Source of the DNA: a candidate division FCPU426 bacterium
GTDB taxonomy: Bacteria > Oederibacteriota > Muellerivitia > Muellerivitales > Muellerivitaceae
NCBI GenBank assembly: GCA_963847625.1
Contig: CAWKAR010000039.1
Coordinates: forward strand, 96,001-160,000
Direction of reading: 5' to 3'
Length of the DNA stretch: 64,000 bases
The translations under genes and the position numbers were made by a program. Shown in pieces: positions 22,623 through 42,571 of this stretch. The first letter of the stretch is position 1. Each line of letters starts with the position of its first letter. The notes under the pieces are model-generated. The model had not been told where the DNA came from, did not search any database, and saw nothing but the letters and a program-made list of their open reading frames with translations.

Positions 22623-22697
22623 TGGGGCGTCGACAAGTGGTAAGTCACCAGCCTTTGGAGCTGGCATTCGTAGGTTCGAATCCTACCGCCCCAGCCA
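22623..22697 (+). tRNA. tRNA-Gln (anticodon UUG)
   Basis: Cloverleaf with anticodon arm CCAGC-CTTTGGA-GCTGG, T-loop GTTCGAATC and encoded CCA. Confidence 0.97.
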
Positions 22698-23919
22698 TTT
22701 TTTTGCCCGTATTTATTGGGCTTTGCAACCAGATAAACCTTCTATCTACCTTTTCATCTACCTTTTCAACCTGGGTTTTGATTTCGGGATAAGCTTTTTC
22801 CATTTTCTGCAATAAATCTTTTGGCGCATTTACTCCGTATCCTTCCAAGGTGCTCACGTTCTTATGACCCGTTAGGCTCATGATGTCATAAGGCGATAAA
22901 CCAGCCGCCCTCATGTTTGAAACGAATGAATGCCGGAAAGTATGGGGCCGGACCTTTTTGGTTAATCCCGCTTTGGTCGCAAGATTTACGAATAATTGTT
23001 TTCCAGGTTGGTCTATCGGTCTGCCCTCTTCGTCACATAGTAAAAAAACCTTATGCTTTTCTTCCCTGGAATACCAATGGCGATAAGTGGGGCGATGGGT
23101 TTTAAGCTTTTCTAATATTGGGAGTAATGGCCCAACGATGGGCAATATTCGGTAATCGCTCGTTTTTTCCGCCCTTACCGTGATTTCCCGGCGGGCTAGA
23201 TCGGCGTCAGCATAACGCAACCCGGCTAATTCACCTTGGCGTATCCCAAGATACAAAAGCAGGTGGGTTACAACCTGGGCATAGGGGCTTTCCTCTGAAG
23301 CTTTTAAGATGGCCGTTTGTTCCTCTTGGTTAAGGTAATTCTTCGGCTTTTTCTCAACCTTGGGGAAGTAGTCCTTAAGAAGTTGCTGGGGTGTCTTAAA
23401 GGGGTGGCTTTTTAATATCTGATTCTTAACCGCCCAACCGCAAAGGCTTGAAAGTTGGGCAACCTCATTGGAAATGGTCTTTATTCCAACAGGAGTGCCC
23501 CTATAAGTGATTTCTTTGCGCCGGGTGGTAATGTACCCTTCGATTTTAGCGGGTGTCAATTCATGTAGTTTTAGATCACCCAAGAAGCGGCAAGTATGGC
23601 TTAAAGCAATGCGGTAAGGTTTCAGGCCCTTGGATGAATTTAGTTTTATGCCCTCTACTGCACCAAAATATTGGGGGACCGCTTCAGTAAGGGTGGGAAT
23701 AATCTTAATGTCTAAACGTTCTTGGGTAATTTCTCTTACTTTTTCACGGCCTAAATTGTCGGAAACCCGCTTAAATACCTGCTTGGCTTCCCTTGTTGTG
23801 GGAAATGTCCCTAAATATAACCATTGCCGTGAACGTTTGCCCTTATTCATGGTTGAAGTGACGGCGAAAGCCTTAATACCGCCGTTTCTCTTGTCAGGCT
23901 TCGTTTGTAGAGTAGCCAT
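22645..23919 (-). CDS. tyrosine integrase
   Basis: Catalytic R (LGIRQGE), K, HTFRH, GH...Y (GHKNVSTLEGY); adjacent to the att site. Confidence 0.93.
   Translation of the reverse strand: MATLQTKPDKRNGGIKAFAVTSTMNKGKRSRQWLYLGTFPTTREAKQVFKRVSDNLGREKVREITQERLDIKIIPTLTEAVPQYFGAVEGIKLNSSKGLKPYRIALSHTCRFLGDLKLHELTPAKIEGYITTRRKEITYRGTPVGIKTISNEVAQLSSLCGWAVKNQILKSHPFKTPQQLLKDYFPKVEKKPKNYLNQEEQTAILKASEESPYAQVVTHLLLYLGIRQGELAGLRYADADLARREITVRAEKTSDYRILPIVGPLLPILEKLKTHRPTYRHWYSREEKHKVFLLCDEEGRPIDQPGKQLFVNLATKAGLTKKVRPHTFRHSFVSNMRAAGLSPYDIMSLTGHKNVSTLEGYGVNAPKDLLQKMEKAYPEIKTQVEKVDEKVDRRFIWLQSPINTGKKMAGAVGFEPTNASSKGW
22675..22700 (+). repeat. att core (tRNA side), 26-bp direct repeat
   Basis: TTCGAATCCTACCGCCCCAGCCATTT is identical at 32098-32123. 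Confidence 0.95.
22745..22768 (+). repeat. candidate integrase arm-type sites (TCTACCTTTTCA x2)
   Basis: Tandem 12-mers near the left att; related tandem pair at 31937-31959 near the right att. Confidence 0.7.
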
Positions 23920-23991: not shown

Positions 23992-24219
23992 TCAAAGCTC
24001 TTTAACATTTTGTGGCCCGGTGTTACGTCGTCCCGCCCAAGCTTCCAATTTTTCAGCAGGGAACCGCAAACATCTTGAAGTGAATTTGGCAAAGGGGATC
24101 GGATCGGCTTCATATTTGGAACGGCAAACCCAATTTCTTAAAGTACCCCCGGCGATACCAAGGAAAGCCGCCGCCTCATTAACGGTTAAATATTTAGTCT
24201 GGTGTTGTAGCGTTTCCAT
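23992..24219 (-). CDS. excisionase-like HTH protein
   Basis: YLTVNEAAAFLGIAGGTLRNWV...LRFPAEKLEAW; upstream of the integrase. Confidence 0.88.
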   Translation of the reverse strand: METLQHQTKYLTVNEAAAFLGIAGGTLRNWVCRSKYEADPIPFAKFTSRCLRFPAEKLEAWAGRRNTGPQNVKEL

Positions 24220-24416: not shown

Positions 24417-26385
24417 CCTCTGGTTTAAGTGGGACTTTGGTTAGGTTGATAAGCCTTTCCCCCTTTTTGCTCCGTTCCATACGAATGCCGATAGTTTCTA
24501 AATTCGTTTTAGCCTTTTCAAGACGACGGGAAAGCGCAGATGAGTCTTTGGGCCAATACTTGCTTTTGGTATCAATGCCCATTTTTTCCGCTTCGTTTTT
24601 TAACTCGTTCAAGCATTCAGTCGGTGAACCTTGCCAAAATGTCTTGTCCTTCATGAACGATATGACCACTTGAGCAAGCGGGTTAGCATCTATAGCTTCA
24701 TCGTTTTGTTGCCGAATAGCGGAGCGGTAACCTCGCTCAAATTCTTTACGCAAGCCTAGCCATTCGGCTATTTTTAAGCCGTAAAGGTGAAAGTCGGCCA
24801 TGCGGGATAGGTCAGCGGGAAGGTCCTTGTTTGTTCGGCCTTCTCTTTCGTTCTTTTCTCGCTCTTCCAAATCATCAAGCACACCTACCAACACGTCGAA
24901 CACACCACAAAGGATATAAGGTTTCATTTTCTCGAAATTTTTCCAAATATCTTTTTCCGTTTGCCGCCTATCTCCCCTAACCCTGTCGAGATTAAAAAGA
25001 ATAGCCCTGTCCAATAGGTCTGCCGCCGCTGTCACCAAGGTGATTCCGTTCAGACCGATAACCCGTTGAAAGGAAAGAATGAACTCGTCCCCATCTGTGT
25101 ATAACTTTCTCTTGGAAATACCATCTCCCGTGCAAGCTCGGCTTAGAAGATCCGACATCTCCCCGGAGATGTGGGAAAGATTGTCTAATGGGATGAACCA
25201 ATGGGAATGGGCTTGAAGGACAAAGTTATCCGGGGTGGTCAAGGAAAGGGTTTGAATAGCGGACGGGTCGAGAAGTTCCTTTATAACCCTGATCATTGTG
25301 GATTTCGCGCTTCCTTGTGGTCCGTGGATAGCAAGAAAGGGGTGGGGAAATCCCGGTATGAAAGCCGCGATAAACCAAACCAGGAAAAGGGCTTCCTGGT
25401 CGCTGTATACTTTTATTTCACCTGAAGGAATTTTTTTCCATGGAAGTCTTGGAAGATTGACAAAATCCAAAAGCTTAAAAACGTCTTCAACCAAATAATC
25501 GGCCCCTTTTCTTCGTTTGGGCTCAACTTGTGGATGTTGGTGGGAGAATCGGCGGAAAAGAATCGGAGGGCGAACCACTATAGACCAATCCTCAGAAGTA
25601 ATCCGAACGGCGCGTCCGTCTCCCAGATCGTAGTAAATTATCCAGGGTTCTGGGTCCATCCCCGTGCTTCCCCAAAACAACCAAGGCGAACGCTCAAACT
25701 CTTCGGATTTCCGAATAATCGCCACTCTGGTGTAAAGGGTATAAACTGGGCTTCCCTCGGAAAAGGCCCGGCCCTTTAAACTCCCTTTGACATTCTTAAG
25801 TTGTTGGTCGGAAAGGGACTTTTCACCGTGTTTTTGTCTAAGCCAAGCCTCAAGATTCTCTGATTCAATCGGCGAATTAATCCCCGGAGGTAGATAGACG
25901 AAAGGGGTATTGTACTGGTCCCGAAAAACCCATCCGCCATGGTCATCGAAGATGTGAATTAATTCCTCTGTTTTTCCCTCAGATTTTGTAATCATTCGGC
26001 GTGGGGTTATCTCTTCCTGTTCTTCGGGCGTGACCAAGGACCACAAGGGGAGAGATGTGGGGGCATCCTCATACATTTTATCTAACGTTTCCTTTTCGTT
26101 TTTCATCTCCTTTTCCACAATTTTTAATTCGGATTCGATACGCGCTATCTCTCGTCGGCTTTTTTCGTCAGGTTTATCTTCATAGTCATACCAACGGTTA
26201 AGTAGCCTTTGATATTTCTGGATGAGTTCGGGGGAATTGTGAAAAGACCCGAATAACTTACAAGAATGGATCAACCAAACCAATTTTTCTTCTTGATACT
26301 GCCCTCTTTTGGATTTTTCTTTTAGCCTAAAAATTTCCTTCAATATTTTGAGTTTTACTTGTTCTAACTTTTCAAATCCTTCCAT
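24385..26385 (-). CDS. replication helicase/ATPase of the mobile element (no recognisable primase domain)
   Basis: Walker A GPQGSAKST, LDNLS, RKLYTDGDE, DLLDRAI, RMADF; C-terminal WPKDSSALSRRL; GGGAGGGG RBS. Confidence 0.8.
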   Translation of the reverse strand: MEGFEKLEQVKLKILKEIFRLKEKSKRGQYQEEKLVWLIHSCKLFGSFHNSPELIQKYQRLLNRWYDYEDKPDEKSRREIARIESELKIVEKEMKNEKETLDKMYEDAPTSLPLWSLVTPEEQEEITPRRMITKSEGKTEELIHIFDDHGGWVFRDQYNTPFVYLPPGINSPIESENLEAWLRQKHGEKSLSDQQLKNVKGSLKGRAFSEGSPVYTLYTRVAIIRKSEEFERSPWLFWGSTGMDPEPWIIYYDLGDGRAVRITSEDWSIVVRPPILFRRFSHQHPQVEPKRRKGADYLVEDVFKLLDFVNLPRLPWKKIPSGEIKVYSDQEALFLVWFIAAFIPGFPHPFLAIHGPQGSAKSTMIRVIKELLDPSAIQTLSLTTPDNFVLQAHSHWFIPLDNLSHISGEMSDLLSRACTGDGISKRKLYTDGDEFILSFQRVIGLNGITLVTAAADLLDRAILFNLDRVRGDRRQTEKDIWKNFEKMKPYILCGVFDVLVGVLDDLEEREKNEREGRTNKDLPADLSRMADFHLYGLKIAEWLGLRKEFERGYRSAIRQQNDEAIDANPLAQVVISFMKDKTFWQGSPTECLNELKNEAEKMGIDTKSKYWPKDSSALSRRLEKAKTNLETIGIRMERSKKGERLINLTKVPLKPEDETNNDHTTH

Positions 26386-26650
26386 GACGAACCCCCTCCC
26401 CAAACTCGCGCCAAGCTACTTGGCAGGTCCGTTGAAGGCGGCCTAAATCTTCATAACTGCTCAATAAATTGTGAAAAAAAGAAAGAGTATTGGGGAGTAC
26501 GAAGAGGGCGTTATTATCAAACGTATGGGAAAAGTCAAAAATCACTTCGCAGTTATTGCCAGTGGGGTAGGGGGAAAGAAGAATATTAGGGGAAACATTA
26601 GCGCATATTGACCACAAAACTGCTGTTTTTAAACTCGTCGTTCGGGACAT
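26372..26650 (-). CDS. hypothetical protein
   Basis: 92-aa ORF with AGGAG RBS, overlapping the helicase start. Confidence 0.55.
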   Translation of the reverse strand: MSRTTSLKTAVLWSICANVSPNILLSPYPTGNNCEVIFDFSHTFDNNALFVLPNTLSFFHNLLSSYEDLGRLQRTCQVAWREFGEGVRHGRI

Positions 26651-26706
26651 GTTGTTAACTCCTGCTGGTTAGTCAATTTCACTACCCGCAATAGTCGTAT
26701 AAAACC

Positions 26707-26745
26707 GCTGGAATTTTTGGGAAGAGATTGGGAAATTATTGGGAA
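26707..26745 (-). promoter_or_regulatory. helically phased direct repeats (TTGGGAA on +, 11-bp period)
   Basis: Copies at 26717, 26728 and 26739 plus a degenerate one at 26707. Confidence 0.65.
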
Positions 26746-26775
26746 CGAAGCTGATTAAAGAGTTATGAGTTTTAT

Positions 26776-27588
26776 TTAGAGATATTCAATTATTTGACGG
26801 GGGTTCCTGAGAAAAGTATCGGATAAGTGAATAGTTTTTGTTTCTTGAAGTAGTTTTTTAAAAAAATCAACATCGGTTTTTAAAGCTTTTTTCCCACCGC
26901 CATAGATACTAGTAGCCAGATATTGGGAATGGCCGTCCACGCCGAATGAGCCTTTCTTCGGATTATAAGACCTACTCCACGATTCATAGGTCTTAGTAAT
27001 ATTTTCACTTAGGGCCATGGTTAAAGCGTCAAAGCAGTTTTTTCTCCAGCGAAAATATAGCCGTTCAAATTTTTCCCTGCGTTTTTTGTTAACAGGGCGA
27101 AGTTCTACGTAATCGCCCGATGGGGGGAGATAGGGTCCAAGGGCTAATCTTTTGTAGTGCGTAACGTCAACATGCCTGTATTTTGTGTTGTTACCTTTCA
27201 AATTGCTCTTCATAAGTTTGCTTCCGTTTGTAATCATCTTTTTCAAATAGCCTTGAAATACGTGAAGCGGTGTTGCGCGACCAAACATTATTCTATTTTT
27301 GAGTAGGGAAGGTTTCTTTTTTAATTTTAGGCTGTATGTTTTTGTTTTAACCTTTTTAATAACGTTATTCCAACCTTTCATGGATTTGAAAATATCCTTT
27401 ACGCGCCCAAAGGATTTACCTGAAATCTCAACAAGGTAATCCTCGTGCAAACCCTTTCCGCCGTCATCGAGGTCTTTTTTAAAAGCTTCCAAGCAGAGCA
27501 TTTGAGGATTGGTTAAATTAAGATAGGTTTTCCCATTGAAAGTCAGGCGCTTATTTTTTTTATCCAGGTTAAAAATATCGTTTATCAA
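26776..27588 (-). CDS. protein with N-terminal winged-helix-like domain and unknown C-terminal domain
   Basis: N-terminal ~90 aa align by eye with the C-terminus of 35310-35909. Confidence 0.7.
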   Translation of the reverse strand: MINDIFNLDKKNKRLTFNGKTYLNLTNPQMLCLEAFKKDLDDGGKGLHEDYLVEISGKSFGRVKDIFKSMKGWNNVIKKVKTKTYSLKLKKKPSLLKNRIMFGRATPLHVFQGYLKKMITNGSKLMKSNLKGNNTKYRHVDVTHYKRLALGPYLPPSGDYVELRPVNKKRREKFERLYFRWRKNCFDALTMALSENITKTYESWSRSYNPKKGSFGVDGHSQYLATSIYGGGKKALKTDVDFFKKLLQETKTIHLSDTFLRNPRQIIEYL

Positions 27589-27631
27589 AAGAACCTCTGG
27601 AAGTTAAAGCCGAATTAAAAGCATTTTTGTC

Positions 27632-27868
27632 TTAAGGCTTCCACGCGCCTAAAAGCTGTAATAGGCGAAGCATGGGGCCACCTGGTTTACGTTGACCGCT
27701 TTCCAAAAGGAAAAGGGCCGTATAGCCAACGCCCAAGACTTTCGCCAACGCCACGGGACCGATTTTATTTTTCTTCCGCCATTCTTTCAATGTTTTAGCG
27801 TCTTGGGGCCGCCATTCGGGAAGCACGGGGGGATTCGTGAGCCATTCTTTTAAGATGTTTGGGTTCAT
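27632..27868 (-). CDS. XRE-family HTH protein
   Basis: LKEWRKK...VALAKVLGVGYTALFLLESGQRKP; 4-nt overlap with the recombinase stop. Confidence 0.85.
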   Translation of the reverse strand: MNPNILKEWLTNPPVLPEWRPQDAKTLKEWRKKNKIGPVALAKVLGVGYTALFLLESGQRKPGGPMLRLLQLLGAWKP

Positions 27869-28848
27869 GCCAAGGCCACCTTTAAGGCTACGGCCTGTGA
27901 TACCTTCGCGGCCACTTCCTTCTTGTCGTCGTCAAAGTAGGTTTGTGTAGTCCTGGGGTCGGCATGACCAGCGAAGACTTGGGTGGCGTACAGGTCCCCG
28001 GTTACTTGCCGGGCCGTGGTGATGGCCGTATGTCTCAAGCCGTGGGGACGAACAACCACCCCACATTGGCCGCCAAGCTGTTTTAGCAGGTAATAAAGGC
28101 CCTGGCCGGTCAAACGGCCCCGGCCCCGGTGATCCAGGTTGGAAAAGAAAGGCCCGTCCACTTGACCACGAACGGAAACCCATTCTTTCAAAGCCACTAA
28201 GGTTTCGGAGGGTATTTGAAGCTCAACCTTTTGACGTTTGCCCTTTCGTTGAACCCTTAAAAGACCTTTCTCTAGGTCCACGTCGCCAAGGTCCAGGGAA
28301 GTCATTTCCGCTCGACGCAAGGCCAAGGAAAGGGCCAAGTGTAAAAGGGCCGTGTCCCTTTCCCGTTTAGGGGAGGGCTCATTATTCGCTACAGTCAAAA
28401 GCATCTTAAACCCTCCCAAGCTCGGTCCTTTGGTATCTCGGACCGCTTCTTTCTTCAAGCCTGGAATTTCTAAAGACCAATTCACTGCACCCAAGGCCCG
28501 CGCCATACGGACTAAAGAACGGATGGCCGAAAGCTTTTGATTGATGGAAGAGCTTGAAAGGCCCTTTGTGGTTAAGTGGGAACGGTAGGAGAGAATCAGA
28601 CGGTTAGCTTCACCTGGGGTTTGGCGGAAAAGATGAAAGAGCGCTTGGGCAGGGGTGGGGATGCCTATAAATCCGGCGAAGTCCTGAAAAGCTTCCCCGT
28701 AGGCTACCCTAGTGCGCGGGCTTAAACTTTCAAGGAATGTATTTAAAACCTCTTTCCATTGTGAACCCTCAACCACCAACAACGGGGAAAAATCTTCTGT
28801 GACATGGTTTTGCTTGGCAAGGTTGGTTTGGTTTATTTCTTCCATCAT
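27865..28848 (-). CDS. second tyrosine recombinase (Xer/resolvase-like)
   Basis: LALRRAE, RKGK, HGLRH, GHADPRTTQTY; no arm-binding N-terminal domain apparent. Confidence 0.92.
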   Translation of the reverse strand: MMEEINQTNLAKQNHVTEDFSPLLVVEGSQWKEVLNTFLESLSPRTRVAYGEAFQDFAGFIGIPTPAQALFHLFRQTPGEANRLILSYRSHLTTKGLSSSSINQKLSAIRSLVRMARALGAVNWSLEIPGLKKEAVRDTKGPSLGGFKMLLTVANNEPSPKRERDTALLHLALSLALRRAEMTSLDLGDVDLEKGLLRVQRKGKRQKVELQIPSETLVALKEWVSVRGQVDGPFFSNLDHRGRGRLTGQGLYYLLKQLGGQCGVVVRPHGLRHTAITTARQVTGDLYATQVFAGHADPRTTQTYFDDDKKEVAAKVSQAVALKVALA

Positions 28849-28863
28849 GGACCCCCTGAAATA

Positions 28864-28909
28864 ATATGATAACTTAGTTAATAGTAACATAGTTATTATA
28901 TACGGTCAA
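28864..28909 (-). promoter_or_regulatory. sigma70-like promoter overlapped by an inverted repeat
   Basis: Minus strand TTGACC-N17-TACTAT; ATATGATAACT...AGTTATTATAT inverted repeat at 28864-28901. Confidence 0.6.
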
Positions 28910-29336
28910 GAGGTTAGGAAAAATATTTTTAAATTATTTTAAAATTCTAAAAGTTTTTTTCTTGATCCGTCTGGGGTTTGCTTGTCTAAACGGGGATTAG
29001 AGAAAGCAAAAATTTAGGGATTAATGACGAAACCGGAAACAGTTCGAATAAAGCAATGACACTCAAAGATGTTATTTTTCGCGGAACCGATAAAGGTCAA
29101 AGGCCGTCCAAAAAAATGCGGTACATTACCGGAGGGACACCCTCCGAAAGTGCGGGTCTTTGTCTTTCAACTTTTGATGATTGGCTCTTTGTGTTTTTGG
29201 TTTGCCAAAATGAAAAGGGGGGTAGGCCACCGGGGGAGGGCCTGAAATTCGGAAGAAAAGGTTTTTTTCCAACCTTACACCAGCGGTATAAAATCCCCAT
29301 TAGGCCGAATAAATCTAATGGCAAATCATCAGACGG

Positions 29337-29625
29337 CTAGGACGATGCTTGGACGGTACCAAAAAAATGGTGTCCAGTCGAAAACCCTTTTAATTTAATC
29401 GTTTGGACACTAGGACGCTAAAGACACTAATTTTGATACTCTCTACCCTCTTTTACCCACCAATACCCCGCCTTATACCCTTACTCTCTCTTTATTTTAT
29501 TTTTTCTCAAGATAAAGAAAATTAGTGTCTTACTGTCCAAGAAGTAGGGAACACCTTTTAAAATCAGGTTTTTAGAGATGGACAGTAACTTAAAATTTAG
29601 TGTCCAGGTAGTGTCTTAGTGCCCC
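29337..29625. repeat. iteron-like cluster (GGACACTA/TAGTGTCC variants), candidate replication origin
   Basis: About a dozen short direct and inverted GGAC/GACAC copies around pyrimidine- and AT-rich tracts; non-coding. Confidence 0.6.
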
Positions 29626-29680
29626 AAAAAGTCGCATAATTGAGGATGAAGATTTAAAGGGTTAAAGGGCCTTTTTGGAA

Positions 29681-29899
29681 TTATTCCAACCCTTTGAACA
29701 GATCGGAGACTTTGCAATTAAGGGCCTTGGCAATTTGAAGAATTTTACCGGCGGTGGCCTGTTGTTCCCCCCGCTCAACGGAACCGATGAAGTTATGATG
29801 GCAATCGGCTATTTCCGCAAGCTTCTCTTGTGAAATGCTCTTTTTGGCCCTTAGTTTTCGCAGGTTTTCTCCAAACTTTTTTGAAACGGTGTCTTTCAT
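29681..29899 (-). CDS. XRE-family HTH regulator (C-protein-like)
   Basis: FGENLRKLRAKKSISQEKLAE...IGSVERGE. Confidence 0.92.
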   Translation of the reverse strand: MKDTVSKKFGENLRKLRAKKSISQEKLAEIADCHHNFIGSVERGEQQATAGKILQIAKALNCKVSDLFKGLE

Positions 29900-29986
29900 A
29901 TTTACGGATTAAATGAAAATCCCTAGACTAAGACCACCCATGATAATGGGTAATTGAATGTTAATTATGATTTCGGGAATGTGAAA

Positions 29987-30439
29987 ATGAAAAAAATGAC
30001 AATTGTTTTTATCGCCTTTTTCGCAGTTGGTTGTGCTGGTAGGCCTTTCGTAAATATGTACTCTCGGATTGACACATCTGATAAGACTGTTTTTGCTCCC
30101 CTGGGGGAAAGGGGCCTGACTGGCCAGTTGAAAAGGGTTTTGCGAGAAAAAGGATGGAATGTTTATGTATCAAACCGAGGGGACAGCGTAACAACAGGGT
30201 TGCCTAATCAAAACTCATATTCAACTTCTTCCACCCCGACGGCTCGTTATCGACTTCTATTGGGTTATAGGCGAGTTGGAACTGAAGCAGATGAAATAAA
30301 TCTCGATTTGTCTTTTGTTGACGTAAAAACTGGCCAAGAAGTTTTTACAATGAATAGTAATTACACTACCACGGAAGCGGTCGTTGAAGATTTTTCAAAA
30401 GCTTTAGATTCTTCCAATCTCGGTCAGTCAAATCAATGA
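29987..30439 (+). CDS. putative lipoprotein
   Basis: MKKMTIVFIAFFAVG-C lipobox-like signal. Confidence 0.75.
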   Translation: MKKMTIVFIAFFAVGCAGRPFVNMYSRIDTSDKTVFAPLGERGLTGQLKRVLREKGWNVYVSNRGDSVTTGLPNQNSYSTSSTPTARYRLLLGYRRVGTEADEINLDLSFVDVKTGQEVFTMNSNYTTTEAVVEDFSKALDSSNLGQSNQ

Positions 30440-30642
30440 GTGACTAAACCATCACAATGATAATGGGTAATTTTCTAAGCGGAAATGTTGAACCCAATAA
30501 AGCGACCAAAATTAGTATTTATAGATAGCTGCAAAAATAAACGAATGCATCGCACGCTAGAAACACTGAAATATCAATGGATTTAAAGCGTGGCGCATTC
30601 TATTACTTATGTGGTTATCTATAAGATTGAATGGAGGGCGAA

Positions 30643-31548
30643 ATGACGATTGAAGAACGCTTGAGTACCTTGGAAAAAGAAGTTAAAAGAACAAAACGCC
30701 TCAACCGTTACTTATTGGGTGCTGCCCTGTTGGTTGCCACAATTGGATTAATTGGTGCAGCGCCATTACATCAGCTAAAAGAAATACGGGCAAACAGTTT
30801 CATTCTTGAGGATGAAACCGGAAATACTCGTGCCAATTTATGTATGAAAGACGGAGAACCAAGGTTGGTTTTTTTGGATGAAAATGCGAAAGAGATCATT
30901 AGGCTATCCGTAGACAGCATGAAACCGTTAGGCGTGGACGTTAATTCTAGCCATCTCTATCTTTGTGAGAACGACAAAAACATGGTTATGTTGTCTTCTT
31001 CTCGTATGCTTATACAAGATCAGGGTGGAGAAATCATTTGGGAGGAGCCTACGACCAAAAAGACTTTTGATGAAATTAGAGCAAAAAAAATCGTTCTTGA
31101 GGATGAGAACGGTACTAATAGGGCTGGCCTATTTATGACCAACGAAGGTCCAAACCTTGTTATGACAGATGATAACGGCAATTTGCGTGTCGTTCTGGCT
31201 GAGTTCAAGAAGGGGCCTGGATTAAGCTTTTTAGATGGGAATGGACAAACTATTGAAAGTCTCACTACATACGATGATCGCCCTAGTCTGAGCCAATATG
31301 AAAAAAATGGAAAAAGAAATGCCATGTTAACTTTAATAAAAGATAAAGGTTCAATGCTTGAACTGTCTGACGGCAATGGTTTAGATCGAGTCCAATTAAA
31401 TGCTTTCAGTGTTGGGCCAGAGTTGGTTTTATTTGATGAAAACCATACGAACCGTGTGGCGTTAGGTACAATCAAAGAGCCCTTTCTTACACTGTTAGAT
31501 GAAAAGGGCAATATTTTTTGGGCAACGCCATCCAAGACCGGGGAGTAA
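30643..31548 (+). CDS. membrane-anchored beta-repeat hypothetical protein
   Basis: Coiled coil plus TM, then repeated L.L.D.NG..R..L units with an internal duplication. Confidence 0.8.
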   Translation: MTIEERLSTLEKEVKRTKRLNRYLLGAALLVATIGLIGAAPLHQLKEIRANSFILEDETGNTRANLCMKDGEPRLVFLDENAKEIIRLSVDSMKPLGVDVNSSHLYLCENDKNMVMLSSSRMLIQDQGGEIIWEEPTTKKTFDEIRAKKIVLEDENGTNRAGLFMTNEGPNLVMTDDNGNLRVVLAEFKKGPGLSFLDGNGQTIESLTTYDDRPSLSQYEKNGKRNAMLTLIKDKGSMLELSDGNGLDRVQLNAFSVGPELVLFDENHTNRVALGTIKEPFLTLLDEKGNIFWATPSKTGE

Positions 31549-31553
31549 AATTC

Positions 31554-31892
31554 ATGGCGGATACTTCTTCTAATAATGTCACTGGTCCCCAGTTTCAAGC
31601 TATGTCCATTATTGGTATTTTGATGTTGGCGTATGCGCTTCGCCCCCGTGATCCCTACGGCTATTACATCTTGTTGAGGTGGGTTTGTTGTCCGACATTG
31701 GGTTACTTGGCTTTTGCCGCAAATGGGAAAATTCAGAAATCCTGGGCATGGTTTTTGGGGATTGGAGCGCTTCTTTACAATCCAATTATTACCCCGCATT
31801 TAGGTCGTGAAATTTGGCGTATCGTAAACGTTGTCACGATTGGGGCCTTGGTCGTTTTTATCTATCGAAACAAATTTTTCCGGTCCTGCTGA
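31554..31892 (+). CDS. small membrane protein (DUF6804-like)
   Basis: PYGYYILLRWV...LLYNPIITPHLGREIW. Confidence 0.7.
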   Translation: MADTSSNNVTGPQFQAMSIIGILMLAYALRPRDPYGYYILLRWVCCPTLGYLAFAANGKIQKSWAWFLGIGALLYNPIITPHLGREIWRIVNVVTIGALVVFIYRNKFFRSC

Positions 31893-32097
31893 ATTAATTT
31901 TTTGTCTTCAACTCGGTAATATCTCTTACGAAATCATCTACCTTTCGTCTACCTTTTCCACATCTCAACGAGTGACAATGAGTTTTAAACCGTTATAAAG
32001 TGATAGTGGACTTGTTCTTGTTTCGTTGATGGATACGGTCTAAAATCCTCATGAATCTAAGTCTTTCAAGAAGAATTTGTCTGAGCGGGTTGGACTC

Positions 32098-32123
32098 TTC
32101 GAATCCTACCGCCCCAGCCATTT
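32098..32123 (+). repeat. att core (displaced tRNA-Gln 3' fragment)
   Basis: Identical to 22675-22700. Confidence 0.95.
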
Positions 32124-33629
32124 CTCGTTTAAGCCGTTGGCACCCACGCTAACGGCTTCTTTATTGGAGTTCTCCGAGTTCGAAACCGCAATCAGCTCAA
32201 AGGGTTGGCGGAAATTAACTGATAATTTCCCCCCTTTCCAGGAACTTTGCGCAAAGAAAGACGAAACCAACCGCCTTTTCTCGATAGGATTTTGCTCCAT
32301 GAAGGTTTTATGGGACTTGGAGGCCATTTCCAAAAGCTTGATTCCTTCGTCCAGGTAGTTATGGTTTGCTTTTTGGTGGGCGTGGATGGTTTCCATGATC
32401 TTTTCCATTTCCGCTTTCCAATCCTTCGATTTACGGTCAAAGAATTCCTGGGTTATCCTTCCATCCAGCTTGTCCTCATACATGGTATCTATACGGCCTT
32501 GAATCTTGGTTAATTCGGCTTGCAGGCGGGTTATTGCCTCGTTATGGAATGTTTTCTCGTCCTTGTGGCTTGATTTCAGGGCATTAACGATTAGTTCCAA
32601 TACCTTATCATCAATCTCCAAGGCTTTAAGGCTGGTTACGAATTCCTTTTCGAGGGTTTCTTCTCGTGTGTAGGGTTCAGGGCATTTACCTTTCCAGCCT
32701 GTGCAATGGTAATAAACATATTTACCTTTCTTGAGTTCTCCCACCATTAAACAACCGCAATGACCGCAAGTAACAAGCCCGGCATAGCAAAAGTTATGCT
32801 TGGATTTCTTGGACTTGCTTTGGTTTCGTTTATCCAAAATGTTTTGAACTTGGTTCCATAAATCCTTCGAAATAATTGGGGTATGGTTTCCTTTGTAGGT
32901 AATCCCTTTCCAATCGAAATCCCCGCAATAGGTTCTAGTTCGAAGCATTCTATGAATGGAGGAAACGGGTAAAGGTTTCTTGCTTCTTCGAAATACCAAT
33001 CCCGAATTCTTGAATTCCTGGGTTATTTCCTTCAAGGAATAATCCCCGGTGGCGTATTCCTGGAATAGCTTGGCGATTATTGGGGCGTATTGGGGGTCTA
33101 TTTCGATGATCTTCTTCCCATTTGCTCCTGTTATGTTTTTAAACCCAATAGGGGCAACGGAAGGCCAAATTCCTTCTTCCGCTTTTTCCTTTAAGCCTTT
33201 CTTGGCTTCCTCCGAAAGGTTGTCTATGTAGTGCTTTGCCATTACCACCTTTATTCCATGAATAAGCTTTTCATTAGACCGGGAATTAGGGGAAATAAGG
33301 GTGTTTTCCTTCACTAGGTAAATTTCCAAGCCTAGTTCATCCAAAGTTACCCAATCTTTCAAATTCCGGTAAAGGCGGTCTGTCTTTTCTACTAAGAGGG
33401 TTTTATAAACGGGGTTTTTCTTGAAGAAGGTTATTAAGCTATCGAAACCTTCCCGGCCTGATACCTTGGCGGTTTCTACGTCTCCGAATTCCTGGATGAT
33501 TTCATAACCGTTATTAAAGGCGAAATCCCTTAATAGCTTGTATTGGGCTTGTATAGAGAAACCTTCCTTTTCCTGTTCCTTGGAAGAAACACGGACATAG
33601 AGGACGGCTTTTTTAACAATTTTATCCAT
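32106..33629 (-). CDS. large serine recombinase
   Basis: YVRVSS, DRLYRN, recombinase domain, zinc ribbon CGHCG...YYHC...C, coiled coil. Confidence 0.95.
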   Translation of the reverse strand: MDKIVKKAVLYVRVSSKEQEKEGFSIQAQYKLLRDFAFNNGYEIIQEFGDVETAKVSGREGFDSLITFFKKNPVYKTLLVEKTDRLYRNLKDWVTLDELGLEIYLVKENTLISPNSRSNEKLIHGIKVVMAKHYIDNLSEEAKKGLKEKAEEGIWPSVAPIGFKNITGANGKKIIEIDPQYAPIIAKLFQEYATGDYSLKEITQEFKNSGLVFRRSKKPLPVSSIHRMLRTRTYCGDFDWKGITYKGNHTPIISKDLWNQVQNILDKRNQSKSKKSKHNFCYAGLVTCGHCGCLMVGELKKGKYVYYHCTGWKGKCPEPYTREETLEKEFVTSLKALEIDDKVLELIVNALKSSHKDEKTFHNEAITRLQAELTKIQGRIDTMYEDKLDGRITQEFFDRKSKDWKAEMEKIMETIHAHQKANHNYLDEGIKLLEMASKSHKTFMEQNPIEKRRLVSSFFAQSSWKGGKLSVNFRQPFELIAVSNSENSNKEAVSVGANGLNEKWLGR

Positions 33630-33633
33630 TACT

Positions 33634-34767
33634 TTAACTTTCCGAATCGGAGTTTAACCAGCCTAATGTTTTGTAAATTTTGTCTGAATAAAATCGGCTT
33701 ACTATTTCTTTTTTGAATTCATGAAATTTTTCGGGAGATGCTTTTAGTTCACGTTCTAAATCCTCTCTCGAATAACTCCTGCCGGATAAATAATCTAGTA
33801 TTGATTCATTAGAAGTAATTAATTGCTCGACACATTCAAGGAATACTAAGTGTGAAATAAAGAGTTGATGTTCGTTTCTGCCGGATGGGGACAAATAATA
33901 AAGTTTGGTTCCATCATAAATTCCTTTATGGACTATTTTGCTCCGGATATCAAAAAAGTCCCAAGCCCAAGCGCCAAGCATCGAGTATAAATATTCTTTG
34001 ACATTGTTGTTATATCCGCTTTTTTTTACCACGGTTTTTAATTTTTTTATGTGACAGACTTTATCGATTTTTTTTGCCAAGCGATATTTGCGCCCGGAAG
34101 ATTTTAATAGCGTTTCAAAAGCGGTGCACATCATTACAATCTGAGCAAAAATTGAAATCTCGGGTATCCTTAGTTGAGCAAATTTGAACCATTCCAAGCT
34201 TTGAAAAATGTGTGCTTTTGCAGGAACATTAAATATTTCATTGAATCTATTGCAGAGCCATGGGCTGGGTTTTATTGTTGTTAAATCTTTCACAGATGGA
34301 GGAATTTTGAAGAAAAATTTTTCTTCTCCGGTTGGAATCCTTTTAAAATATCCAAACCATGATGCGTGGTTTAGCTTCTTTAGATTAAATCTTGACGTAA
34401 GGGCACTAAAAGCTTCAGTGCTAAACGGAGCAAAAGAAGAATTAAAAAAGTAATTTCTTAAGTCTGATGAAACTGATGAAAAAATAAATGCTTCAGCAGC
34501 TTTAAATAGAATATTTTTTTGATCGGGTTCAACAAGAGAAAAATTATTATATCGTTCAAAAGAGCAAATAGTCGGGGATTCAATGGGCTTCATTGAATGA
34601 TTTAAATAACATTCAAATAGTTCCTTAAGTTTTTTATAAACTTCGGAATCGAGCCCTTTAGAATTTACATTGCGATCAAAAGGCCAAAATATTATTGGCC
34701 CGATTCGAACATCTTCTTTGATTGTTATCCACGGCATAAAACTGCATTCATGGGTTGGAATTTCCAT
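33634..34767 (-). CDS. HEPN-domain protein (ApeA-like), candidate defence RNase
   Basis: MCTAFETLL followed by the RxxxxH motif RSKIVH; very AT-rich. Confidence 0.7.
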   Translation of the reverse strand: MEIPTHECSFMPWITIKEDVRIGPIIFWPFDRNVNSKGLDSEVYKKLKELFECYLNHSMKPIESPTICSFERYNNFSLVEPDQKNILFKAAEAFIFSSVSSDLRNYFFNSSFAPFSTEAFSALTSRFNLKKLNHASWFGYFKRIPTGEEKFFFKIPPSVKDLTTIKPSPWLCNRFNEIFNVPAKAHIFQSLEWFKFAQLRIPEISIFAQIVMMCTAFETLLKSSGRKYRLAKKIDKVCHIKKLKTVVKKSGYNNNVKEYLYSMLGAWAWDFFDIRSKIVHKGIYDGTKLYYLSPSGRNEHQLFISHLVFLECVEQLITSNESILDYLSGRSYSREDLERELKASPEKFHEFKKEIVSRFYSDKIYKTLGWLNSDSES

Positions 34768-34957
34768 TTATCACTCTCTTTTTATGATTGATAACATTTA
34801 TTCTCACTCTTAAAGCGTTTCGAATAGTGGAAACCGTCCAGCTTTGAATGGTGGTTTGTAATTCAGCTACCCGGATTTTAAGCCGGGAATGGAGCTTAAG
34901 GGAAAGCCTAATGTGAATAAGCTTTCCTTTTTTTCTCCAAAAATTCACATTTCGCAT
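34748..34957 (-). CDS. small ribbon-helix-helix-like DNA-binding protein
   Basis: KLIHIRLSLKLHSRLKIRVAELQTTIQSW; overlaps the HEPN start. Confidence 0.65.
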   Translation of the reverse strand: MRNVNFWRKKGKLIHIRLSLKLHSRLKIRVAELQTTIQSWTVSTIRNALRVRINVINHKKRVINGNSNP

Positions 34958-35028
34958 ATTTAACCTTTACTAAGGCCAAAAACGGAAAGTCTTGGCTATA
35001 AATGTAGCCATTTCTTTCTTTTTTCGGC

Positions 35029-35208
35029 CTACTTGCAGGGGTTTTGGGGTGTTTTTGATTGTTCCCAATCCTGGAGGATGTGGAAAAAGTTCACGAGGTT
35101 GTCCACGATCTGCCGCCCGTCCTCCCTGGTTAATTTCCGGGAGGTACGGGGCTGGAAAACCCCTAAAGCTTGGTCAATGAGTTGTTCTTTCGTGAAAACT
35201 TTTTCCAT
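35029..35208 (-). CDS. 59-aa hypothetical protein (below ORF-track cutoff)
   Basis: Own translation: MEKVFTKEQLIDQALGVFQPRTSRKLTREDGRQIVDNLVNFFHILQDWEQSKTPQNPCK. Confidence 0.7.
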   Translation of the reverse strand: MEKVFTKEQLIDQALGVFQPRTSRKLTREDGRQIVDNLVNFFHILQDWEQSKTPQNPCK

Positions 35209-35257
35209 GACGCACCAAGAATAAAAATTATTTCTTGGCGTAAGGATACGACAGGCA

Positions 35258-35307
35258 GGGGGGAACTACGGGGGGTAAAAAGGGGAAAGTTAGGGGAAAC
35301 TAGGGAA
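35258..35307 (-). promoter_or_regulatory. phased GGGAA direct repeats (~11-bp period)
   Basis: GGGAA at 35261, 35283, 35294 and 35303, degenerate at ~35272; directly after the stop of 35310-35909. Confidence 0.65.
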
Positions 35308-35309
35308 GC

Positions 35310-35909
35310 TTAGAACAGGTTAAGGCGGTAGAAACCTTTTCCAGCGGGAACAACTATGGTCTTCCATAGAGGGGACTTTTTGAATACATCTTTCATTTTT
35401 TTACTACAAACACCTAAATCCTCAAGAAGGGTATCCTGGTGGACTTGTTTCATTCCTTTTTTGAGGTATTCCCACATACGGTTAATGACACGGCCTTGAG
35501 TAGGGGAAACATGATATTCCAACTGCTTAACTTTAACCGTCCTGAAATCCTCGGTTAGATGGAAATCCGGTTCAGATTTCAATTCTGAGAATGGATTCTG
35601 AGAATCCATTCTCAGATTCGACTCAGAATGGGGAACCATTGCATTTGTAGGGGATATATCGGATTTTAGATTCGAATCTGCACATTCTGAATCTGAGGTT
35701 GATTCTTGGGTTATATCAATAACCGGTTTTTCCGGTTTCGGGTTGGGTTTTGAATTTAATCTTTCTGTAATGTCATCCAAGGTTTCTTGAAGATGGTAAA
35801 TTTTGTAAATTAGATAGGCAAAACTCCCAATAATGGCTAATACCCCAGCTATTATTCCTGCTAGTAACCATCCATTAATGTTTTTGCTTTGTATTGCAAT
35901 TGCTGGCAT
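35310..35909 (-). CDS. membrane-anchored protein with C-terminal winged-helix-like domain
   Basis: TM WLLAGIIAGVLAIIGSFAYLIY, Ser-rich linker, C-terminal domain ending GKGFYRLNLF. Confidence 0.75.
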   Translation of the reverse strand: MPAIAIQSKNINGWLLAGIIAGVLAIIGSFAYLIYKIYHLQETLDDITERLNSKPNPKPEKPVIDITQESTSDSECADSNLKSDISPTNAMVPHSESNLRMDSQNPFSELKSEPDFHLTEDFRTVKVKQLEYHVSPTQGRVINRMWEYLKKGMKQVHQDTLLEDLGVCSKKMKDVFKKSPLWKTIVVPAGKGFYRLNLF

Positions 35910-36030
35910 GGAAAACACCCCCCCAAATGTTATTAATCGTGCAGAGAACAAGCGTATACCTTTGGGCGTTTTGTGTCAAGTTTTAGGGCCTTTAGTTTTT
36001 ATGGGACGGTCTTTAAACGAACTGTTAAAC

Positions 36031-36275
36031 AATAACTCATGGGGGAGTTATTACTGTGTGGGGGATAAATAGCTTAGGGAGTTATTCATAGGTCGGGGAG
36101 AGTTATTTAATAACTCTAGTGGGAGTTATTAATAGGTATAGATGCCCATTTATCTAGGTTTAATAGATGCAAATGATATATCATTTGATGTAAGTTTCAG
36201 TTTTTGACTAACGAGATCAAACAGTAACTACCTTAGAAGCTATTGAATAACTCTCTTAGTTACTCAAAGAGTTAA
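36031..36275. repeat. AATAACTC/GAGTTATT direct and inverted repeat cluster
   Basis: Multiple copies in both orientations in non-coding DNA. Confidence 0.75.
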
Positions 36276-36310
36276 TAGATCGGGGATAAACCTATTTGGG
36301 ATGAGATAAA

Positions 36311-36612
36311 CCCATTCTAAGAATCCATTCTCAGAATCCAACCCATTCTTAGAATCTATTCTCAGAATCCATACCCATTAAACCATTTGATATGCCATAA
36401 AACTCATAACTCATAAAGCCATTCTCAGAATGCCATTCTCAGAATCCAACCCATTCTCAGAATGCCATTCTTAGAATCCCATTCTCAGAACCCATACCCT
36501 TTTATTCATTTGATATGCCATAAAACTCATAATTTTAGGGATATAACCCACCCAACCCATACCCGCAAACCCATTACCCATAAACCCATACCCTCTAAAC
36601 CCATAACCCATA
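36311..36612. repeat. ATTCTnAGAAT palindrome array (9 copies in two blocks) followed by an ACCCAT-like tract
   Basis: Copies at 36314, 36327, 36345, 36358, 36421, 36435, 36453, 36467 and 36481; 26-bp direct repeat at 36384-36409 and 36507-36532. Confidence 0.9.
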
Positions 36613-36706
36613 CTTATTTGAATAGGTTAAAAATTGGTTAGGGAAGATTTGAGACCGGGAAGCCGTAAAGGAATTTTATAAATTAACGGTTGAATGGAGA
36701 AAAAAA

Positions 36707-36735
36707 GGGGAATAACGGGGGAATATTCGGGGAAT
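36707..36735 (-). promoter_or_regulatory. phased GGGGAAT x3 (11-bp period)
   Basis: Copies at 36707, 36718 and 36729. Confidence 0.65.
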
Positions 36736-36820
36736 TTCATCATGATATGGCCGTAATTTAACAATTCACTTTGTTATAATGATTAAAAGCTATCTAGTTA
36801 TCTTTCGATGGGATGAGGAA

Positions 36821-37123
36821 ATGCCTACTCAAATCGCAATTGACAAACAAAGAATCGCTGATTTTTGCCGCCGAAATCATATTCTTAAACTTTCCCTTTT
36901 TGGGTCGGTTTTGACCGGCCAGTTTAAACCGAAAAGCGATGTTGATGTATTGATGGTTTATGACCCCCAATATTCGGTTGGTTTTCGAATTTTCAGGATG
37001 GAAGAGGAACTTTCGAAACTGTTTGATGGTCATAAAGTGGATATTGTGAATGAAAAATACATTAATCCACGGATGAGGGAACAGGTTTTGACGGAGGCTG
37101 AAGTTCTCTATGCCCAAAAATGA
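36821..37123 (+). CDS. minimal nucleotidyltransferase (MntA-type antitoxin)
   Basis: LFGSVL...SDVDVL, KVDIV. Confidence 0.92.
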   Translation: MPTQIAIDKQRIADFCRRNHILKLSLFGSVLTGQFKPKSDVDVLMVYDPQYSVGFRIFRMEEELSKLFDGHKVDIVNEKYINPRMREQVLTEAEVLYAQK

Positions 37124-37442
37124 AAAAATATATTTGGGTCATATGTTGGATATGGCGCAGAAAGCCATCGATGCTTTAAAAGACAAATCACGCTCACAAT
37201 TCGATCAAGACGAAATTTTAAAAACGGCTGTTTCACATTTCATTCAAACGATTGGGGAAGCGGCCTCAAAAGTGTCAAAAGAGTTCAAGGAACGAAACCC
37301 CGGTATTCCTTGGGATGATATTATTGGGATGCGCCAAAAGATTGTTCACGACTATATGGCAGTTGACTTTGATATTGTTTGGGATGCCGTAAAGACAGAA
37401 CTTCCTTCCCTTTTGGAAAAACTCAAGAAAATAGCTGTTTAA
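37110..37442 (+). CDS. HepT-like (DUF86) HEPN ribonuclease toxin
   Basis: IGEAA...IPWDDIIGMRQKIVHDY. Confidence 0.92.
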   Translation: MPKNEKIYLGHMLDMAQKAIDALKDKSRSQFDQDEILKTAVSHFIQTIGEAASKVSKEFKERNPGIPWDDIIGMRQKIVHDYMAVDFDIVWDAVKTELPSLLEKLKKIAV

Positions 37443-37492
37443 TTATCCTGTGTTTTTCCCACCTCTCTTTCTTAAATGTTAGAATGTCGGTC

Positions 37493-40477: not shown

Positions 40478-40559
40478 AAATGGGAATTCCACTTGTATAT
40501 TAAAAACTATTTGTGTTACTTGATCTCAAACCAAGACCTGGAAAACAGAGGTTGAAAAA

Positions 40560-41036
40560 ATGATTTTGGATGTTATTGGAAATTGGTATAGCCATCATGA
40601 AGCGTTTTGCCATTTTTCGGAATTTTCGGTAGTGGTTTTGGTGGCTGTTAGTTCTTTTTTCCGTTGGGGTTTGGATTGGACAATAAAAGTATTTAAAAAA
40701 CAGAAATTAGAAATAAATGCGTCGATAGCGACTTTCCATGACAACGGGCTCATGACGGGTTATTTTATGGAATTTGAAATAATAAACATGGATAAAAATC
40801 CAATCCTTTTAAAAAGGATTGACGTTGTTTTTAAAAGTAATCGAAGTAATTTTGAATTAGAAATGAACCATCTCCTATTGAAACATCTAGAAATAGCTAG
40901 ACCTTCTACAATCTCCTTTAATCATCTAGATCGCATTGATAATGTATGGGTTTATACGAATTCTAAAAAGTTTGTTATGAATAAAAAAAATATTAAAAGG
41001 CTAAATAATCAATTAGACAAAAAAACAAAGAAATGA
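40560..41036 (+). CDS. hypothetical protein with N-terminal hydrophobic segment
   Basis: 158-aa AT-rich ORF with GAGG RBS. Confidence 0.65.
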   Translation: MILDVIGNWYSHHEAFCHFSEFSVVVLVAVSSFFRWGLDWTIKVFKKQKLEINASIATFHDNGLMTGYFMEFEIINMDKNPILLKRIDVVFKSNRSNFELEMNHLLLKHLEIARPSTISFNHLDRIDNVWVYTNSKKFVMNKKNIKRLNNQLDKKTKK

Positions 41037-41245
41037 ATTGATTTTTGGAATTGGGTACAGTAGCCCTAGATGGAAAAATTTTACTGTTTCAAGAATAAAT
41101 GTTTTATTTCTAGAAATGGATTGAGTAGTTGATTTCTTAATTTATCCATGAAGGCCGTAAAAATCAATAAAATAGAGATTTAATAGAAAAGAGAAAAATT
41201 TAATAATGGCAAGAGATTAAACAAATATGAATTATTTAATTAAAA

Positions 41246-41518
41246 ATGTTTGAAGAACACCCTCATTTTTCTACCCCTTCCGCAGGAGAATGTATATGGC
41301 GTTTTATGAGTTACACCAAGTTTTTAGCGTGCCTTAATAAAAATTCATTATTTTTTTCAAGATATGACAAGTTGGGTGATCCATTTGAAGGCGCTTATGC
41401 GCAAAAACAAGAAGAATTACGCCAATTTTATGAAGCTCAACGATTATCTGAAGCTCAACGAGGCAATTTAATTGTTACACCTGGAACGACTAAAGAAATT
41501 ATAAAAAAGATGAATTAG
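41246..41518 (+). pseudogene. truncated DUF2971-like protein
   Basis: IWRFMSYTKF...LFFSRYDKLGDPFEG N-terminus; ORF ends exactly at the IS30 boundary. Confidence 0.65.
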
Positions 41519-42571
41519 CCGAATTCACGGAGTAAGTGCAACACTTCGCCGGAAGACTTCCGCCGGAGTTTTAAAGCCCAAACATTTCCTGGGCCTGTTA
41601 TTGAGCCATCTTTCTATGGTCCTGAATTCTTTGAAGGACACTTTAGCAAGATCAGTCTTTTTAGGCAAATGGCGGCGGACAAGACCGATAGTATTTTCCA
41701 CCGTACCTTTTTCCCAACTGTGGAAAGGGGCGCAGAAAAAGGATTTTGTACCAAGCACGTGGTTGGTTTCCAAGTGGTTGGTGTTTTCGGTTCCGTTGTC
41801 ATAGGTCAGACTCAGGCGGGCGTCTTGAGGGAAGCGGCATAAAGCGCGGTTGAGGCTATGACTCATTTGGCGAGCGGTCTTTCGTTTGAGCTTTCCCAAC
41901 TTGGAAAAACGGCTTTGACGCTCGACGAGAGCCCGCATAGCAACTTTACTCTGACGAGAGACCATGGTGTCGGTTTCCCAATGGCCGAATTGCTTGCGTT
42001 GATTGGCGATCTCGGAGCGCTTATCGATGGAAACACGGCCTGGGATATGGTTTTTGGCGTGCTTACGGCTATGGCCAAATGAGAATCGTCGCCGGTGGTG
42101 TCGAACTAGGCAAGGAATCAGCTCAGTGGCTTCAGCATAAACCCACTGATAGATAGCTTCAGGACCAATGGTTTGCTTAGGCCGTAGGTGACCTAATCGA
42201 CCTGAAATGAGTTCTGGAGACCAGCCTCGTTTCAATTGACGACGGACGTAGGCACGAATTCGTTTTGTTTTCAGGCGTAAACGGCGTGCTCGTTGTTGGT
42301 TGCGGTCAACATACCGTTGATGGGCTCGATGAGAAAGATAATAACCAGAACGGATAGGGGGAGCATTGCGCTTGAGTTCCCTGGAGAGGGTGGAAGGAGA
42401 CCTCTTCAAGGCGCGTGAAATTGCTCGAAGGCTAAGACCCTTTCCTTTCAAGACGGATAAATGATCTCTTTCTTCAACGCTTAAATGCTTGTATTTCTTT
42501 TTCATAGCCGCATATCCTATTCATGCGGCCTTCTTCAGACACTAAGTGTTGCACTTACTTATGGAACTCGG
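41519..42571 (-). mobile_element. IS30-family insertion sequence
   Basis: 28-bp imperfect terminal inverted repeats (41519-41546, 42544-42571) sharing AGTAAGTGCAACACTT. Confidence 0.93.
41525..42505 (-). CDS. IS30-family transposase
   Basis: N-terminal HTH, WSPELI, GHWETDT, TYDNGTE, WEKGTVENTIGLVR, NNRPRKCLGFKTP. Confidence 0.96.
   Translation of the reverse strand: MKKKYKHLSVEERDHLSVLKGKGLSLRAISRALKRSPSTLSRELKRNAPPIRSGYYLSHRAHQRYVDRNQQRARRLRLKTKRIRAYVRRQLKRGWSPELISGRLGHLRPKQTIGPEAIYQWVYAEATELIPCLVRHHRRRFSFGHSRKHAKNHIPGRVSIDKRSEIANQRKQFGHWETDTMVSRQSKVAMRALVERQSRFSKLGKLKRKTARQMSHSLNRALCRFPQDARLSLTYDNGTENTNHLETNHVLGTKSFFCAPFHSWEKGTVENTIGLVRRHLPKKTDLAKVSFKEFRTIERWLNNRPRKCLGFKTPAEVFRRSVALTP

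Follow-up and report, generated by a model that had tools for sequence, protein, structure and literature searches.

Two adjacent mobile islands in a 64,000-nucleotide stretch of a candidate division FCPU426 bacterium (contig CAWKAR010000039.1, positions 96,001 to 160,000; hereafter the window) each carry a gene for a protein with a predicted winged-helix domain (gene 1 in island 1, gene 2 in island 2), followed by an array of phased TTCCC-type boxes and by a leftward run of genes. This layout of domain gene, boxes and mobility genes recurs on many other bacterial mobile elements. From sequence and predicted structure we infer that the domain protein probably binds the repeats head-to-tail and activates the promoter of the downstream excision/replication operon.

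A shared domain beside phased boxes in two mobile elements

A first-pass annotation of the window had aligned the two proteins by eye, and the likeness proved to be real. The domains of gene 1 and gene 2 match by BLASTP at 32% over 50 amino acids (aa; E 2e-5). In addition, residues 13 to 89 of the gene 1 protein score 33.4 bits on a hidden Markov model of 154 family domains that excluded gene 1, compared with 2.6 bits for the best of 200 shuffles; those 154 domains had been collected with a profile of 10 rows, one of them gene 1. Both proteins also retrieve the same three unnamed Atlas clusters, and these comparisons show, at the level of sequence, that the two domains are homologous.

The OmpR-type winged helix proposed earlier is borne out by structure prediction, which gives an OmpR/PhoB-type fold across the whole domain, with an N-terminal beta-sheet and a C-terminal hairpin, and the predicted recognition helices of both domains read [RK]-x-K-D. 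Neither domain, nor any of 10 aligned members, matched PF00486 (Trans_reg_C); HHalign against two host domains gave 10-14%, and the nearest named Atlas cluster, Trans_reg_C at 0.78, is a lead only. A phosphoreceiver domain was absent from the window genes and from the 60 scanned of the 154 family proteins, and DUF2285 matched neither window domain nor the scanned family proteins. No family in Pfam, NCBIfam or PHROG matched more than 2 of 36 members, and a literature search found no paper on this winged-helix domain family, which comprises at least 3,774 sequence clusters and is described by no library searched.

The fusion to different partners noted at first pass holds across the family, where 131 N-termini fall into 91 clusters and 30 of 154 proteins have an N-terminal hydrophobic stretch. 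No homologue was found for the 180-aa C-terminal part of gene 1. The gene 2 protein consists of a hydrophobic helix (residues 16 to 34), an acidic linker rich in Ser, Pro, Thr and Asn, and then the domain. Elsewhere, the domain is fused to a QueC-like or metallo-beta-lactamase domain, or occurs in five copies in one protein (P0131, P0076, P0008). Planctomycetota loci L291 and L294 to L305 encode proteins of 1,100 to 1,580 aa with two tandem internal copies and no boxes past the gene; after several of these giant genes comes a conserved gene encoding about 135 aa, and the two partial open reading frames (ORFs) scanned gave no Pfam match.

The phased arrays reported earlier stand, as three were observed between 22601 and 42600, compared with a mean of 0.006 in 500 Markov resamples. 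Genome-wide, there are 8 exact 11-bp TTCCC triplets (0.13 expected), two at period 9 and none at periods 7, 8, 10 or 12 to 16. The claim that boxes follow each gene at once is accurate for gene 2, whose stop codon lies 2 nucleotides (nt) before the first box, but not for gene 1, where the distance is 31 nt; likewise, each island does have a winged-helix domain, but that of gene 1 is N-terminal and lies about 545 nt from its boxes. The last box precedes the next ATG by 59 nt in island 1 and 53 nt in island 2, close to the 50 bp first estimated, and the genes that follow, all on the minus strand, run to a tyrosine integrase in island 1 and a large serine recombinase in island 2.

Two independent elements stand in tandem at a single tRNA, and since each has a module copy of its own, the module is used by both a tyrosine- and a serine-recombinase element, as had been supposed. 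The 26-nt 3' end of tRNA-Gln is present twice, at 22675 and 32098, and the islands are taken as independent because each is also found alone in relatives. Island 1 occurs in the sister genome G001 with 99.5% identity over 9.6 kb, at the same tRNA-Gln(TTG) and with another right flank. Relatives of the island 2 recombinase (95.7% identical) lie at tRNA-Gln(CTG) in G001 and G031, in copies of the element that lack both island 1 and the 377-aa cargo gene, and two further island 2-type copies stand at contig ends of the same genome (C24 and C63).

The domain is held by 31 of 73 pattern-scan loci. From 58 distinct domain matches, 53 were kept (four internal to giant proteins and one low-scoring match were dropped), and these form 35 clusters at 60% identity, two of them being the window genes. 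A 10-12-bp repeat score of at least 14/22 past the gene was reached in 17 of the 35 clusters, whereas other ORF ends reached it in 3 of 60 cases and shuffles in 2.6%; the period was 11 to 12. Phased repeats do lie beyond homologous genes, but the core is not always TTCCC: ACCCAC, TCCCC, TCCGC, GCAC, CACAG, AAACAC and TTCCT also occur. Downstream, excisionase-like, primase, replication or recombinase families are found in 21 of 35 clusters, a tally over 60 scanned ORFs that misses truncated ones; terminase was not found among the 60. By eye, tyrosine-integrase-like ORFs lie upstream in several clusters.

In a hold-out of 21 new Planctomycetota clusters, repeats were found in 3 (0.5 expected). 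Seven of these clusters are tandem internal copies in proteins of 1,100 to 1,580 aa and 14 are short ORFs; after rescoring with the scored interval widened into the coding tail and a threshold of 13, both set after the fact, repeats were seen in 8 of the 14 short-ORF clusters (1.5 expected; peak lags 11 to 12) and in none of the seven giants. A reverse test failed: of 120 viral TTCCC-triplet loci returned, 80 were examined and not one had the domain within 1.5 kb, so the TTCCC motif alone is uninformative on this domain family. Where the predicted recognition helix contains [RK]-D, phased CCC accompanied 19 of 25 clusters, compared with 3 of 9 others. Arg-guanine and Asp-cytosine readout would fit this pairing, but the putative helix-box code is a lead only, because the association, crudely measured, did not repeat in the hold-out and kin are not independent.

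Promoter geometry and the proposed switch

A TAnnnT hexamer past two phased boxes was found at gaps of 9, 10, 11 and 12 nt in 12, 7, 13 and 10 of the 35 clusters, respectively, whereas shuffles gave about 2 and the controls 0-1 of 59; in the hold-out the count was 5 of 21 (2.1 expected). A looser xAnnnT lies 4 to 9 nt before the start in 12 of 17 excisionase-like genes (3.0 expected), the position that leaderless transcripts would need. No consensus -35/-10 pair was found past array 1 or array 2, and island 2 has no consensus -35. If its TATCCT occupies -12 to -7, the last boxes fall at about -29 to -25 and -41 to -37. The fixed spacing between box and -10 is an added reason to suspect an activator, and viral TTCCC arrays share a small TAnnnT peak at gap 11, suggesting a general activator design. 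PhoP dimers in this box arrangement displace the sigma region 4 contact, according to PMC11825685. In island 1, GACTAT fails the TAnnnT test, with no TAnnnT at 12-nt spacing there, and may be a weaker or decayed promoter.

In the mechanism that we propose, arrays 1 and 2 would be the cognate site of the predicted winged-helix protein, which would bind four to five direct repeats, one helical turn apart, head-to-tail. The last two boxes would straddle -35, so that the protein could make up for the absent -35 contact in recruiting sigma70 RNA polymerase, like PhoP/PhoB on PHO boxes. The variable partner might take the part of a phosphorylated receiver and determine when the protein acts; this partner would be a membrane anchor and linker in gene 2 and an orphan 180-aa tail in gene 1. 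The two islands share both the helix reading [RK]-x-K-D and the TTCCC core; cross-activation between them is therefore possible, and would be incidental if real because each island also occurs alone.

The same arrangement could serve a repressor that binds the boxes and blocks RNA polymerase, or read-through into the excision operon, until removed on induction. The variable partner domains are reminiscent of inducer-sensing satellite repressors, the last box lies within the polymerase footprint, and the regulator gene and the operon run in the same direction, so that read-through needs control; PhoP, too, represses (PMC11825685). However, with no consensus promoter past either array, transcription should be silent unaided, and the fixed 9-12-nt gap suits polymerase contact better than occlusion, which leaves repression unlikely.

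More doubtful still is that the boxes are operators of a small downstream protein, either an excisionase/AlpA/RdfS-like helix-turn-helix (HTH) protein or the 59-aa or ribbon-helix-helix-like ORF, with the winged-helix gene a mere neighbour. HTH_17 genes do lie downstream in 11 of 35 clusters, and such proteins oligomerise on DNA, according to PMC11963761. Nevertheless, neither array is directly followed by an HTH_17 gene, the boxes remain even with a methylase gene (L018) or the 59-aa ORF next in line, and the repeats in the island 1 attachment (att) arms are TCTACCTTTTC, with no TTCCC array there. It is the gene-box unit that stays the same and the operon's first gene that changes, a sign that the boxes belong to the domain rather than to the protein encoded downstream. 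Least probable is a role outside the promoter, in which the arrays would serve as replication iterons, recombinase arm sites or sites for a host factor and the protein would act in replication, partition or recombination. The arrays are placed after the family gene and ahead of the operon's first gene, come with a positioned -10 and lie far from the att ends; the island 2 run has no replication gene, and the giant domain proteins have no arrays.

Beyond activation of these two operons, we raise tentatively that a very large family of receiver-less PhoB-fold activators could serve as a portable master switch for the integrative elements and satellites of little-studied phyla, with an operator-promoter at the gene tail, a helix and core that change together as a private lock, and a swapped partner (membrane tether, orphan or enzyme-like) as the sensor. 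Such a switch, if real, would be a counterpart, on the activating side, to the repressors of satellites, and elements with a common box, as here, could turn each other on. The candidate on-switch for integrative elements and satellites of uncultured phyla packs domain, operator and -10 into less than 400 bp and could be tested in E. coli. Silent islands might be awakened by expression of the activator, and covariation of box and helix, if real, would amount to a natural code of protein-DNA recognition from which orthogonal activator-promoter pairs could be drawn.

The tandem islands and their other features

Table 1. Features of the two islands, in window coordinates (first bases of boxes are on the minus strand)
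Feature	Position	Strand	Remarks
tRNA-Gln(TTG)	22623..22697	+	Integration target of both elements
Tyrosine integrase, island 1	22645..23919	-	Final gene of leftward run; PF00589 and PF13102
Excisionase-like HTH_17 protein	23992..24219	-	PF12728 E 4e-8; TIGR01764 under its cut-off
P-loop protein, 666-672 aa	24385..26403	-	Weak P-loop matches only
92-aa ORF	26372..26650	-	First gene past array 1; AGGAG ribosome site; no family
Degenerate -10 candidate GACTAT	26691..26696	-	Weak; 12 nt past last box
Array 1	26709..26745	-	First bases: TTCCC 26745, 26734, 26723; TTCCA 26713; period 11, 11, 10; identical in G001
Gene 1	26776..27588	-	N-terminal family domain (about 27322-27588) and 180-aa C-terminal part
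XRE-type HTH gene	27632..27868	-	Directly upstream of gene 1; PF01381 E 2.5e-4, under cut-off
Second tyrosine recombinase, island 1	27865..28890	-	Upstream of module; two split ORFs in G001
Fourth array	29444..29480	+	TACCC x4, TATTTT 12 nt later; period 10, 10, 12; island 1; non-coding, repeat-rich
tRNA 3' end copy, 26 nt	32098..32123	+	Right end of island 1, left end of island 2
Large serine recombinase, island 2	32106..33629	-	PF00239, PF07508, PF13408
377-aa cargo gene, island 2	33634..34767	-	Missing from G001 and G031 copies
69-aa ORF	34748..34957	-	Weakly ribbon-helix-helix-like (PF23807 E 0.019); conserved in C24, C63, G001, G031
59-aa ORF	35029..35208	-	Conserved; first gene past array 2; no family
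Predicted -10 hexamer TATCCT	35243..35248	-	12 nt past last box; TATCCT or TATCTT in C63, G001, G031
Array 2	35261..35307	-	Five T(T/A)CCC boxes; first bases: TTCCC 35307, 35298, 35287; TACCC 35277; TTCCC 35265; spacings 9, 11, 10, 12 (mean 10.5)
Gene 2, 199 aa	35310..35909	-	C-terminal family domain at 35313-35570
ATTCTCAGAAT and AACCCAT repeat field	36302..36608		Likewise upstream of gene-2 relatives in C24, C63, G001
Third array	36697..36734	-	First bases: TTCCC 36734, 36723, 36712; TTCTC 36701; period 11, 11, 11; kept in G001

The third array had been listed as a third box set. It is phased, but has no winged-helix gene before it, and it resembles dispersed TTCCCC-GAAAG arrays flanked by GGCCTTCATGGA (C19, C21, C27, C63 and the end of the G001 cargo), so that it probably belongs to a different, dispersed repeat element; the same proteins might nevertheless bind it. 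Intergenic sites of the dispersed family lie at C19:110378, C21:61813, C27:122417 and 262781, and C63:7301 of genome G000 and at L254:17451, and in the window at 36697-36760 and about 41150. Its arrays are flanked by TGGACAG-TAGAAC words as well as GGCCTTCATGGA and often adjoin cargo genes or insertion sequence (IS) copies; similar GGCC..TCATG words bracket the island 2 toxin-antitoxin and restriction genes, as cassette boundaries might.

The fourth array points toward an XRE gene (29681-29899) from that gene's 3' side, and its membership in the module is uncertain. It lies in a non-coding region (28890-29680) with GGACAC/GTGTCC-like repeats, a candidate replication origin. The near-palindromic ATTCTCAGAAT and AACCCAT repeats also occur inside gene 2 (35577-35620) and in C24, C26, C57, C63, L254 and L256, and a 21-nt word of that field recurs inverted right past the gene 1 stop (26755-26775).

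As for the operon genes, the P-loop protein is a likely replication helicase/primase partner, judging by its position and Walker A motif. The 59-aa ORF, a candidate directionality factor or second regulator, precedes the serine recombinase in the window, and a relative in L208 (4182-4370) precedes SpoVG-like and primase genes. The last codons of the serine recombinase are supplied by the tRNA 3' end copy, and its C-terminus varies with the isoacceptor, being KWLGR at TTG and KWLGD at CTG (32098-32123; L254:7507; L255:7825); the island 2 element moves between two tRNA-Gln genes. Its far end was not found within the window. Its cargo (36779-42505) includes a nucleotidyltransferase-HEPN toxin-antitoxin pair, a type IIG restriction-modification gene and a 90-aa PDC-S31-like fragment adjoining an IS30-type transposase.

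Comparison with known systems

In ToxR and CadC, an N-terminal DNA-binding domain is followed by a membrane helix and an outer domain. Their structures rank 14 and 17 among the fold matches, and they share with gene 2 an OmpR-type domain and one membrane helix, predicted in gene 2. The order in gene 2 is reversed, with the anchor first, an acidic linker of about 75 aa, the domain last and no outer sensor domain; no known family matched this membrane-tethered layout.

The closest likeness in fold is to the OmpR/PhoB effector domain (Trans_reg_C; PmrA, GlnR, PhoP, PhoB), which has the same predicted fold over the whole domain and, on pho/PHO boxes, binds direct repeats about one turn apart over the -35 position (PMC11825685). 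The 11-bp island repeats appear to match this style in their sequence geometry. Unlike OmpR/PhoB, the island domain has no Pfam match and no receiver, its recognition-helix region is shorter in the profile alignment, and its gene lies on mobile elements, adjoining its putative operator and with the varied partners described above.

At the level of the element, the nearest analogue is FseA (DUF2285) of ICEMlSym, an element-encoded activator that binds next to the -35 of the excisionase promoter; PMC10359603 describes an inverted repeat, an extended-turn HTH, a required frameshift and an antiactivator. The islands differ in their direct repeats, predicted winged helix and lack of DUF2285.

In layout, the arrays directly past the winged-helix gene are like those of the Ltr late activators (RinA, LtrC, ArpU) of Gram-positive phages, whose cognate direct repeats right past the gene drive the next operon and whose C-terminal residues set specificity, as given in PMC3753634. 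Unlike Ltr activators, the island proteins show no sequence homology to them (no shared PHROG family), occur in other hosts and would target an excision/replication operon instead of terminase and morphogenesis genes. Among the 80 viral TTCCC arrays, four (L055, L096, L103, L110) have a 162-aa gene, presumably ArpU-like, that ends 4 nt before the boxes, and another group (L048, L059, L076, L078, L085, L086, L097, L108) has a conserved context resembling phage attachment arms. Overall, the island system would work like PhoB on the pho box and is laid out like Ltr and, by the tests run, is a member of none of the systems compared.

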